Positions 37,901 to 40,900 of a DNA stretch of 64,000 nucleotides are shown here, in pieces. The first letter of the stretch is position 1, and the number at the start of each line of letters is the position of its first letter. The notes below the pieces were generated by a model, which was not told where the DNA came from, made no database searches, and saw only the letters and a program-made list of their open reading frames with translations. This DNA is from Antedon mediterranea (lineage: Eukaryota > Animalia > Echinodermata), in assembly GCF_964355755.1 (NCBI RefSeq), contig NC_092674.1, forward strand, positions 18,538,001 through 18,602,000. The letters are read 5' to 3'. A program made the translations under genes and the position numbers.

Positions 37901-40900
37901 AATTTTCTTATCTTTAGTTCATTCTAGAGTTTTGAAATGTTTTTTTACTGATATTTATTATTAAACAATGTTTTATATTTTACTATAGTAAAGCAACCAC
38001 AAAATGTAAACAATCTAAAATAAATAATACATGGCGATACTTCCTAAATTGTTCTTGCTCTTTTTGGTAACCATCATTTTTTGCACTTTGTTTTGGGGTT
38101 TATCTAAACAATAGCAGTTAAAAAACAGTTACAACTAAAATTATGAAAGCATGAAAAAACAATTGTTTTTTAATGGCTAACAATCAATGGTCCAAAAAAA
38201 AACATCACTCACTTTGCTTAAAATCAACACAGTGTTTATAAAAATTAACAACATTAACTTATTTAATGTTTAACGTTATCAATTAAATAATGAAAAATAT
38301 TTAAAGAATACACTGTATGGTAAGTGAGTACTTGTGAGAGATGTTAGGTGAACACTTAAGTTTTGGATCAGCTTAGAATTAATCATTCAAATCAATAGTT
38401 TACTAAATCAATAGATAAGCCATTTTAAACATCATTCATTGAATCCAAACATGCTATATTTAAATGCTGACAATGATTTGGTGTAACTTTGAAATAAATT
38501 TATTATTGTCTGTTTAGCATTACATAGACCACTTCAGTTGATAACAGTTCAATACCATTTCTATGTTCTGCTTTACTGATTGCAGTAAAGTTTTCTTAAG
38601 AATAATTTGAGAAATAATTAGTTTGTCAATCAAAATATTTGTCTATAATTTGCTTTTTTTTTGATGAGATATAATTACAAAAACTAATACAGTTGGGAGT
38701 GGTGTATTGAGAATAAATTACATTGTATTTCAGCAATGGTGAATGACTGATAAAAACAGAGAAAGTTTGAAGTTGATGAATAATATAATTGTTATAATAT
38801 TCAATGAGTAACCAATATTTTCCACATTTTTATGTATTTGAGCTGTTTACTAAGCGTATGTTTGTTGATTGCTCTCTCCTCCTCCTCCTCCTCCTCCTCA
38901 CCTCAGGTCTAACTCTGCTGATGTTAAATCATACCACTTTTATTTTGTGGGATGCTGAACTGTTTTTCTCTAAAAACATGCAGAAATTAGGATTATTTAT
39001 CGTTTGATTATAATTCATTGTAATAAATGAGGATGATTAAATTATTGGTGGTTTTTTTCCTCACAACAGCTGCTGTCAATATAAAATAAAAGCATTTAAA
39101 AGGATTTCTCACTGAAAGATATTTGGATTAAAGTAACATTAAAATAATTAAAGTAATAACTGAAAACAATATTATATCTAGCTTTATCACATGCTTCAAA
39201 CGTGTTTAACTCAGTTTAACTATTGTGATTTGCTTCTAAGGTGGTTAAAACTTATGTACTATTTAATTTTTTCATTGACTCATTGGTTTATTTCTATTCT
39301 TGCATTCTGCTCTAAATTAACCAATATAACATTTATTAAATTTTTCTCTAATAGGCCTTCATGTCCATGTTTCAAATATTGACCCAAAAGGGATGGGCAG
39401 TGGTTATGTACGAGACAATGTATCAGACATCCACAACCTTCAACCTCCTTATTGTTATCTACTTCATTATATACCATCTTTTCGCTACCATGGTAAATAC
39501 ACGGAACTGCCTCTACAGAGGGCAATGATCTCGTCCAGGGGCTTAAATTCAATAATGTGTCAAATGCAATGGCCCCTGGTAATAACTGATCTGTGTCAAA
39601 CAATGTCATACTATGGCTTGTCTCACCATCAAATGGTTTTGTTAAATAATGTTTACAAATTATTAATAGATCATTGTCCTCTGGTGTGAAACGAATGGAT
39701 TGAAGAATGCTTCAGCAAATTGCTGCATGAAAGTTTATAGCATCATTGCATGATTCATGATTATATACTATTGGTTTTACATTTGCCTACTTTTGCATGG
39801 TATATAAAACACTGACATTCACTAGTATAAGTCTATTCACAGCATTTTACTATTTTACTTGATGTAGAATTATGTTTCAAACAAACTTGGTGTACTGTAG
39901 ATTTATTTCACCACTACACATTATTATTTAAAGACACCTTCCCTACAATTTGTGACGTTTTGTAAAAATAATACATATATATTACTTTAAAAACATTAAA
40001 CCAGGTCATTCCTTGTCTTAAATGTACGTTTTATGGTAAATTATGATAAAAAGTGAGAAACAATGCACTACCTAAGTAGCTCACGGCGACTGACCTCTCA
40101 TGGACGGTCTTTAGGCCTAGCCTAGCTAGGCTTAGTTTTGTAGGCCTAGCTGGTAAACATCGGTAACGTACAAACATCGTACGCTAGCTATATACCTAGC
40201 CTGACGTTGTATAGTTGCTGCATTAATTGTCTTTCTATTTTTGCCAGACTCCGTTGATACAAATTGGGGAAAACCCGGTATTTTCGCTGAAAAGATAGGA
40301 GTCTTCCATTTGTTTTGGCCTCGCGATCGATCGAAAAGTGGGTTAATTACAGAAGAAAAGCAGAAATATCAATCCGCGTGCAATGCATTTTGGGATTTAT
40401 AGCGGGCCGCTATAATTATTAGAATCAACTTATTTTTTACATTTTTAACCGTTTAAAGACGAAAAAAGTTATCGCAATAGGACCATATAGTATTATTTTT
40501 ACATTAAATATAGTTTGTGATCTTAAAATAGATCTAAAAAATGTAGTGAAGGTGTCTTTAACAAACCATTTAAAATAGCAATTGTATATGTAACAGCAAA
40601 TTGGAGCAACCAGCACTTGCCTCAGAACAAATAATAATTCTCCATATTATTATCTCTTCAGGTATATCTTGCCTAGAATGCAAAAATGTTCAATTTAATC
40701 TTGTTGATGTTTGTAACAACTAGAACTAGTGTTGCTCCACCTCAATTAAGTCAGACTTGCATACCATAAAATCCCATTTTTCTAATGATGTCTGCCTATA
40801 AAGCATAAAATTATGATTTGAGTCTTGGTTGTGATTTAATTTGCTCTTGTAGATTTCCTCATTGTTTCATATTATTGTCCTTCAACATTCACTTTCCTCC

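Follow-up and report, generated by a model that had tools for sequence, protein, structure and literature searches.

In echinoderms, hemichordates, molluscs, annelids and flatworms, the NALCN gene is reported to carry alternative exons 15a and 15b (Senatore et al. 2013, PMC3557258), and the echinoderm arrangement described there is the same tandem E-then-K pair of domain II pore exons that we read in the crinoid Antedon mediterranea. Supplement 1 of that paper holds genomic sequences around exon 15 in 31 entries. The portions of the paper available to us give no regulatory mechanism for the 15a/15b choice, and the accessible main text has no match for secondary structure, docking, selector, base pair or complementary. 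Among the papers that we found, none explains how a single invertebrate NALCN gene chooses between an EEEE and an EKEE pore.

RNA pairing has been described at other exon pairs and clusters, summarised here from the available parts of three papers. In exon 4 of Drosophila srp (PMC4691838), sites lie after the upstream constitutive exon, between the exons and in the downstream intron, and each pairing loops out one exon; these elements are conserved, mutationally proven and could form a pseudoknot. In the 14-3-3zeta-type arrangement (PMC6071210, PMC4691838), a downstream intronic dock is complementary to upstream sites with a shared core, and splicing defaults to the exon closest to that dock; a duplication model in PMC6071210 predicts a selector after the last exon. 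In human ATE1 exons 7a/7b (PMC7797038), a shared element (R3) has two competing partners, a separate long-range helix is present, and double-exon transcripts arise when pairing fails.

We analysed the NALCN locus of A. mediterranea in a stretch of 64,000 nucleotides (the window; NC_092674.1, positions 18,538,001 to 18,602,000, forward strand). A literature search that lay mostly outside subscription journals turned up nothing that links NALCN to RNA pairing, in line with the first-pass annotation of this DNA, which was not aware of such a description, and nothing on RNA pairing in echinoderm mutually exclusive splicing. Rfam gave 0 matches at E<=1 in 37000-45400, and ARAGORN predicted 0 genes.

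The E and K pore exons of Antedon NALCN

The gene on the + strand of the window is crinoid NALCN. In a protein search, 39355-39492, the K exon, matched a RefSeq Antedon mediterranea NALCN at 100% identity, and the motifs TQEGW and TQKGW are both read. The first-pass annotation was right to see a NALCN gene with an E/K pore exon pair. The exons concerned are:

37099-37230, + strand: NALCN exon 14, constitutive, domain II S5, with donor GTAAGT at 37231; placed by translation and by a joint in the X9 contig
37594-37731, + strand: exon 15a, E pore (TQEGW), 138 nt, joined to exon 14 in the X9 contig
39355-39492, + strand: exon 15b, K pore (TQKGW), 138 nt, with donor GTAAAT, non-consensus at +5
45242-45388, + strand: exon 16, constitutive

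From the four pore motifs read in Antedon NALCN, the outcome is EEEE or EKEE. Because the two exons are each 138 nt long, double inclusion keeps the frame, and with a spacing of 1623 nt between them their exclusion is explained neither by frame-shift decay nor by simple steric hindrance. Something other than decay must therefore keep these two in-frame exons apart. Steric hindrance was ruled out by inter-exon introns of 1623, 683, 281, 176 and 486 nt (the K AG-free stretch, only 112 nt, was counted in this rejection), and mixed U2/U12 splice sites were ruled out by donors that read as GT-AG.

RefSeq NALCN models contain the E exon only, the K exon only, both or neither. Both exons are present in 4 of 6 models in Antedon, 5 of 9 in Anneissia, none of 5 in Patiria and 5 of 15 among the Asterias proteins listed, these figures being gene models and not counted reads. 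With such models present, the E and K exons may not be strictly exclusive. The sole joint observed in reads comes from a single contig of depth 6.5 in run X9, from a close relative (organism B), in which 37230 is joined to 37594 with GT..AG ends and the next intron is retained to 38408. At 37535-37550, 43 nt before the E acceptor in use, there is a strong-looking pyrimidine tract with CAG; splicing to it would shift the frame, and the X9 contig takes the acceptor at 37594 instead.

Elsewhere in the window, 47145-47196 is a 52-nt diverged copy (score 72) of the downstream NALCN coding part 45756-45806, possibly a partial exon duplication. On the minus strand at 1-8400, head to head with NALCN, lie exons of an ABC transporter with a visible Walker A motif, presumably of the ABCC/MRP type.

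Element A and its predicted upstream and downstream partners

The first-pass annotation had listed eight complementary stretches around the K exon, and all of them were read correctly, letters and positions alike. Together with two further sites, the elements are:

37231-37245, + strand: site 'a', positions +1 to +15 of the exon-14 donor; +5 to +14 are perfectly complementary to 38441-38450
38433-38490, + strand: central element A; predicted partners are 'a' (at 38441-38455), D2 (at 38449-38490) and, more weakly, D1 (at 38433-38480, segments A1-A3)
39516-39531, + strand: element B, 5' arm of a donor-proximal stem
39535-39579, + strand: inner 9-bp hairpin within the B:D1 loop
39667-39709, + strand: D1, the dock of the first-pass annotation; its core 39668-39683 is complementary to B, and its tail is 39687-39712
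42343-42408, + strand: D2, 40 bp with A in five segments, -38.2; no repeat within the window

The full duplex joins 38449-38490 of A with 42343-42408 and holds a core helix of 16 bp (38463-38478 with 42361-42376) at -19.9. With A fixed, 1 of 300 shuffles reached this core; in window comparisons of A:D2 there were 0 of 27 in each direction, and 0 of 40 in a further test. When A was not fixed, 82 of 329 whole-intron shuffles reached -19.9, and on a coarse grid the tile of A ranks 6 of 63, other tiles giving -34, -32 and -31. On the upstream side, 38441-38450 is the best partner of the exon-14 donor up to the K acceptor. The predicted energy of a:A is -12.1 bare and -17.8 with flanks, and the pairing alone is not above chance (27 of 300 shuffles for the bare helix; 7 of 60 in a second test). 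The footprints of 'a' and D2 on A overlap by 7 nt (38449-38455).

The co-location of these partners on A is a stronger argument than the a:A pairing itself. Out of 27 tiles of 60 nt, that of A comes first for three targets (the exon-14 donor, the dock core and the remainder of the downstream intron) and sixth for a fourth, the dock tail. As controls, 113 further GTRAG anchors of matching geometry were examined: the donor and far partners fall together in 6 of them and all three in 2, and none of these controls is as strong as the pairings of A. Because 'a' and D2 were picked as targets after browsing top lists, we put the effective odds at roughly 1 in 20 to 1 in 100.

In restricted folds, whose long-range energies are rough, a:A and B:D1 form before D2 exists, and the full A:D2 forms with B:D1 when 'a' is removed. 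With all elements present, a:A and the inner 27 bp of A:D2 form together; this coexistence at equilibrium means that there is no clean toggle. The predicted pairings thus join an upstream site to an inter-exon site, and the inter-exon site to a downstream site, as in the srp layout.

We tentatively favour, with rather less than even confidence, an srp-type two-way pairing around the central element A, with B:D1 as a standing stem. In this explanation the exons, the complementarities and the 7-nt overlap are as read from the DNA, the helices and their energies are predictions, and the order of events is one that we infer. The E exon would be looped out when A pairs upstream, with the region of the exon-14 donor, and the K exon when A pairs downstream, mainly with D2; B:D1, a local stem beside the weak K donor, likely forms in both states. 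Since 'a' and A are transcribed first, a:A could form before the K exon exists and may favour 14-to-K splicing while the polymerase covers the 2.85 kb leading up to D2. Should exon 14 by then be spliced to the E exon, 'a' would be gone, and the full 40-bp A:D2 pairing could enclose the K exon to give E only. The single X9 contig, in which exon 14 is joined to E while the following intron is still there, speaks for this explanation. As exclusion would be only partial, the choice is expected to be biased and leaky, in keeping with the both-exon models, and tissue-specific choice would still require proteins or elongation rate. If the pairings are real, they give the exact sites to mutate.

The foremost alternative is that the complementarities are chance matches or repeat remnants in an AT-rich genome rich in inverted repeats, that B:D1 is a decayed terminal inverted repeat or an incidental stem, and that splice-site strength and proteins choose the exon. 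We regard this as unlikely but as a serious contender. The whole-intron nulls, unremarkable as chance would have them (the 82 of 329 above, and 27 of 40 for a helix described below), speak for it, whereas the co-location of partners on A is uncommon.

The stem beside the K donor and the proposed competition for one dock

B (39516-39531) pairs with 39668-39683, 136 nt away, over 16 bp with one G-U at -25.6 kcal, just as the first-pass annotation had it. None of 500 shuffles of 39493-39920 matched this energy, the local fold of 39493-39720 has a z of -3.65 (0 of 200 shuffles), and all 16 pairs have probabilities of 0.72-1.0 in the ensemble of 38300-39800. The 39493-39920 shuffle null flatters B:D1, given its rank among real helices: in the window it is only 20 of 52 among those of -19 kcal or better within a 1.5 kb span, and 18 of the 19 stronger ones are repeat-covered. 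While this ranking is in favour of chance or repeats, other observations argue against such an origin. No further copies of A, B:D1 or D2 were found within the window; in organism B, the depth over A and B:D1 is close to single copy, in contrast to that over the repeat at 39912-40100; and no target-site duplication of the MITE type is seen at B:D1, whose flanks read TA and GT.

The repeat at 39912-40100 has about million-fold depth in organism B, and the window holds many inverted-repeat elements (14098-14415, 19115-19306, 24074-24737, 26614-27209, 43092-45060 and 39912-40600). In run X10, one 39-nt repeat-like piece matches.

The first-pass annotation had proposed that A and B compete for D1, A:D1 leading to the E exon and B:D1 to the K exon. 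Some of its observations hold well. A3 forms the proposed 12-bp helix with the dock at -12.6, which is the best site in the inter-exon intron and leads the other inter-exon partners of the dock core by 3.5 kcal; A3 and B indeed pair with the same dock bases, 39668-39678; and the bare duplexes have similar energies (-27.0 for A:D1, -27.7 for B:D1). The layout also fits the stem-arm duplication proposed in the consulted part of PMC6071210. Against shuffles, A3 is borderline (14 of 500), and A1, although complementary to the dock in 13 pairs of three short runs, is at chance strength (47 of 150). The whole A:dock pairing at -27.0 is reached by 22 of 82 shuffles in a 60-nt window statistic and by 3 of 82 in a two-helix statistic built for it, which reflects the nesting of A1-A3 in the right order. 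The core GRCAATGA is indeed shared, with 4 of its 7 window matches in this exon cassette, while 7 matches against 4.95 expected is no excess (21 of 100 shuffles). The mutual exclusion of A:dock and B:dock holds for A3 and 2 nt of A2 but not for A1, which pairs outside the B footprint and is able to coexist with B:dock.

The competition itself fared poorly. In the ensemble of 38300-39800 the pair probability of A:dock is 0.0, and forcing A3, with or without A1, onto the dock costs 21 kcal; for A3 with A1 the cost is 13 kcal when only the candidate blocks are allowed to pair and 27 kcal with D2 included. Given this gap of 13-27 kcal, the two states required for control by a competing dock are not both populated in prediction. 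B lies much nearer the dock than A, so kinetics would also favour B:dock. A3 favours D2 over the dock (-19.9 versus -12.6), and the dock tail 39687-39712 favours the start of the K exon (-18.9) over A1/A2 (-13.4). The tail pairing is at chance level (21 of 150 shuffles), and similar or better K-acceptor pairings of this type occur in other loci; masking of the K acceptor by the dock tail is a minor possibility. The 14-3-3zeta-type precedent given for the switch is inexact: in that model an unpaired dock goes with use of the exon closest to it (PMC4691838, as far as consulted). Thus, RNA pairing around the E and K exons is plausible, the specific A/B switch is improbable, and membership in the competing-dock family is not established, its stability requirement failing in prediction. 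The pairing system is probably wired differently from that proposal.

Just 5' of element A, 38413-38423 and 39613-39623 form an 11-bp helix at -14.7. No other unbroken match of the inter-exon intron to the 900 nt that follow the K donor is better; the helix is not above chance (27 of 40) and not nested with A:D1.

Related loci and the pore-exon elements

Element A is the only pairing element of the srp-type set that is readable in organism B. Among the differences listed, organism B differs from the window at no fewer than 38 sites in 37732-39247, that is, at least 38 (2.5%); its first aligned piece has 35 differences, 26 of them among those listed. Within 38433-38480 there is 1 listed change against 1.2 expected, so A shows no excess conservation over its intron. 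The wider region 38304-38486, chosen afterwards, has 1 listed change against 4.6 expected (p 0.055), and this single change, at 38458, falls on one of the two unpaired positions of A:D2, which speaks for the two-way pairing. Of the changes at its edge, that at 38487 retains a G-U pair and that at 38490 breaks the end pair of A:D2. Between B and D1, one indel is listed (39556), in the loop of the inner hairpin.

A metagenome scan gave 29 K-exon loci, and the pore-exon pattern had 0 matches in genome contigs and viral contigs. One of the loci, L012, is echinoderm-like with both exons present; it is sea-cucumber-like by inference, with no named match. The B 16-mer matches the first 60 intron bases after the L012 K donor better than all 1000 shuffles (0/1000, in 1 of 20 tests, the next best being 23/1000). 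In a freer 60-mer test the figure is 758/20000, and 6-8% of real windows do as well; in a global alignment of the two K-donor regions, the B arms are out of register and the match requires a gap. The L012 B arm closes a local stem with U-A in place of the Antedon G-U and a loop of 17 nt versus 136 nt, a stem not above chance (6 of 100; 29 of 200, z -1.1). A3 and the dock have no detectable conservation in L012 (96/1000 and 367/1000). The recurrence of B in L012 counts against chance as the origin of the Antedon elements.

In another explanation, proteins would bind B as well as the AGGKCA/TGAYCT or CATTGT-like words of A3, D1 and D2, be it a splicing factor on the RNA or, on the DNA, a factor for nuclear-receptor/Sox-type sites. 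Their near-palindromic form would make copies look complementary. B can be read as two inverted hexamers separated by 1 nt, 6 of the 7 AGGTCA/TGACCT hexamers of L012 lie within 50 nt of the two donors, and L012 keeps the sequence of B but not its long-range partner. On the other hand, the complementarity in Antedon runs well past these words (16 bp and 40 bp), a:A and the L015 pairings (below) contain none of them, and L012 keeps a local stem on the B arm, though at the z of only -1.1 given above. We consider protein motifs a distant candidate.

L012 has a stable hairpin right after its E donor (285-350) with the same AGGTCA/TGACCT words as its K-donor hairpin; it is matched by 12 of 100 and 1 of 200 shuffles and cross-pairs with the K-donor hairpin at about -24. 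The hairpin just after the Antedon E donor (6 of 100 and 34 of 200 shuffles) is unrelated to it in sequence.

Protein searches with ORFs that continue past the K exon into intron sequence yielded 51 short proteins of the K type, of which six (P0004, P0042, P0158, P0162, P0188 and P0189) are echinoderm-like; a representative search gave no new read-through proteins. All six begin V-N, and their donors thus have A at +5. Three of the six read K-G-H/R-D/E-L, which is compatible with the B arm; P0162/P0189 and P0004 are not.

Both exons are also present in L013, L015 and L022, which we infer to be annelid-like. No B-type stem was found in these three loci, and of 16 loci in which an E exon was not seen, 2 have a stem of -21 or better after the K donor; both findings are to the credit of chance or repeats in the case of B:D1. 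L015 has an inter-exon element with which its exon-14 donor, starting at +5, is predicted to pair at -32.3 (0 of 300 and 0 of 200 shuffles), and an overlapping 3' part of the same element pairs downstream at -25.3 (6 of 100; the best of 11 tiles). Judged from these complementarities, the L015 layout is the crinoid layout in unrelated sequence, which is uncommon and weighs against chance. L013 has neither the donor nor the downstream pairing (249/300, 53/200 and 60/100) and L022 is without exon 14, so 1 of 2 testable dual-exon annelid-like loci shows the layout; among K-only loci, 1 of 9 has an equally significant donor pairing (L008, 0 of 100).

Other features of these loci were seen in passing. 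L013 416-475 and L015 6323-6378 form a conserved block in the exon 14-E intron (0 of 200 shuffles) that contains TTTCAG; a regulatory element, a small exon or a poison exon are possible identities. L013 949-963 and L015 6900-6913 have an acceptor-like pyrimidine tract with CAG some 60-70 nt past the E donor, whose alignment is not significant (62 of 200). L007 and L021 hold intronless K-type NALCN coding sequence in long contigs, which suggests processed retrocopies or an intron-free lineage here, and the K-only loci L018, L025 and L026 have partial tandem duplications of the K-exon start or end beside the full exon.

Returning to the two-way pairing around A, its likeness to L015 would allow a broader reading, which we hold to be doubtful: that whether invertebrate NALCN has a calcium-type or a sodium-type pore is decided by an ancient RNA toggle, independent of sequence, that has been kept in a crinoid and an annelid-like animal. 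Such an inter-exon element would pair with either the exon-14 5' splice site or a downstream site through overlapping footprints, and removal of the first intron would be coupled to exclusion of the K exon.

Comparison with known systems

The likeness to the 14-3-3zeta type (PMC6071210, PMC4691838) lies in D1, a downstream intronic site complementary to upstream sites with a shared core. Those systems default to the exon closest to the dock, whereas in Antedon the dock shares its intron with its strongest partner, B, by which it is predicted to be occupied almost constantly. With human ATE1 (PMC7797038), Antedon would share an element that has two competing partners; pairing in ATE1 hides 3' splice sites, as proven by mutants and antisense oligonucleotides, whereas the main predicted contact in Antedon is a 5' splice site.

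With srp (PMC4691838), Antedon shares the placement of sites after the upstream constitutive exon, between the exons and in the downstream intron, such that each pairing would loop out one exon. Several points differ: the Antedon pairings are predictions where the srp elements are proven; the upstream-pairing part of A lies 5' of its downstream-pairing part, with the 7-nt overlap; the upstream site covers donor positions +5/+6; and B:D1 comes in addition, as a local stem. These comparisons rest on the consulted parts of the papers. Taken together, the bidirectional srp system appears to be the closest working likeness, with ATE1 as a parallel. The mechanism class, as modelled here, is already known, and the pairings in NALCN would be new, if functional. 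If they are real, an echinoderm channel joins the cases of exon choice controlled by RNA pairing, for which the proof comes mainly from arthropods and human ATE1.
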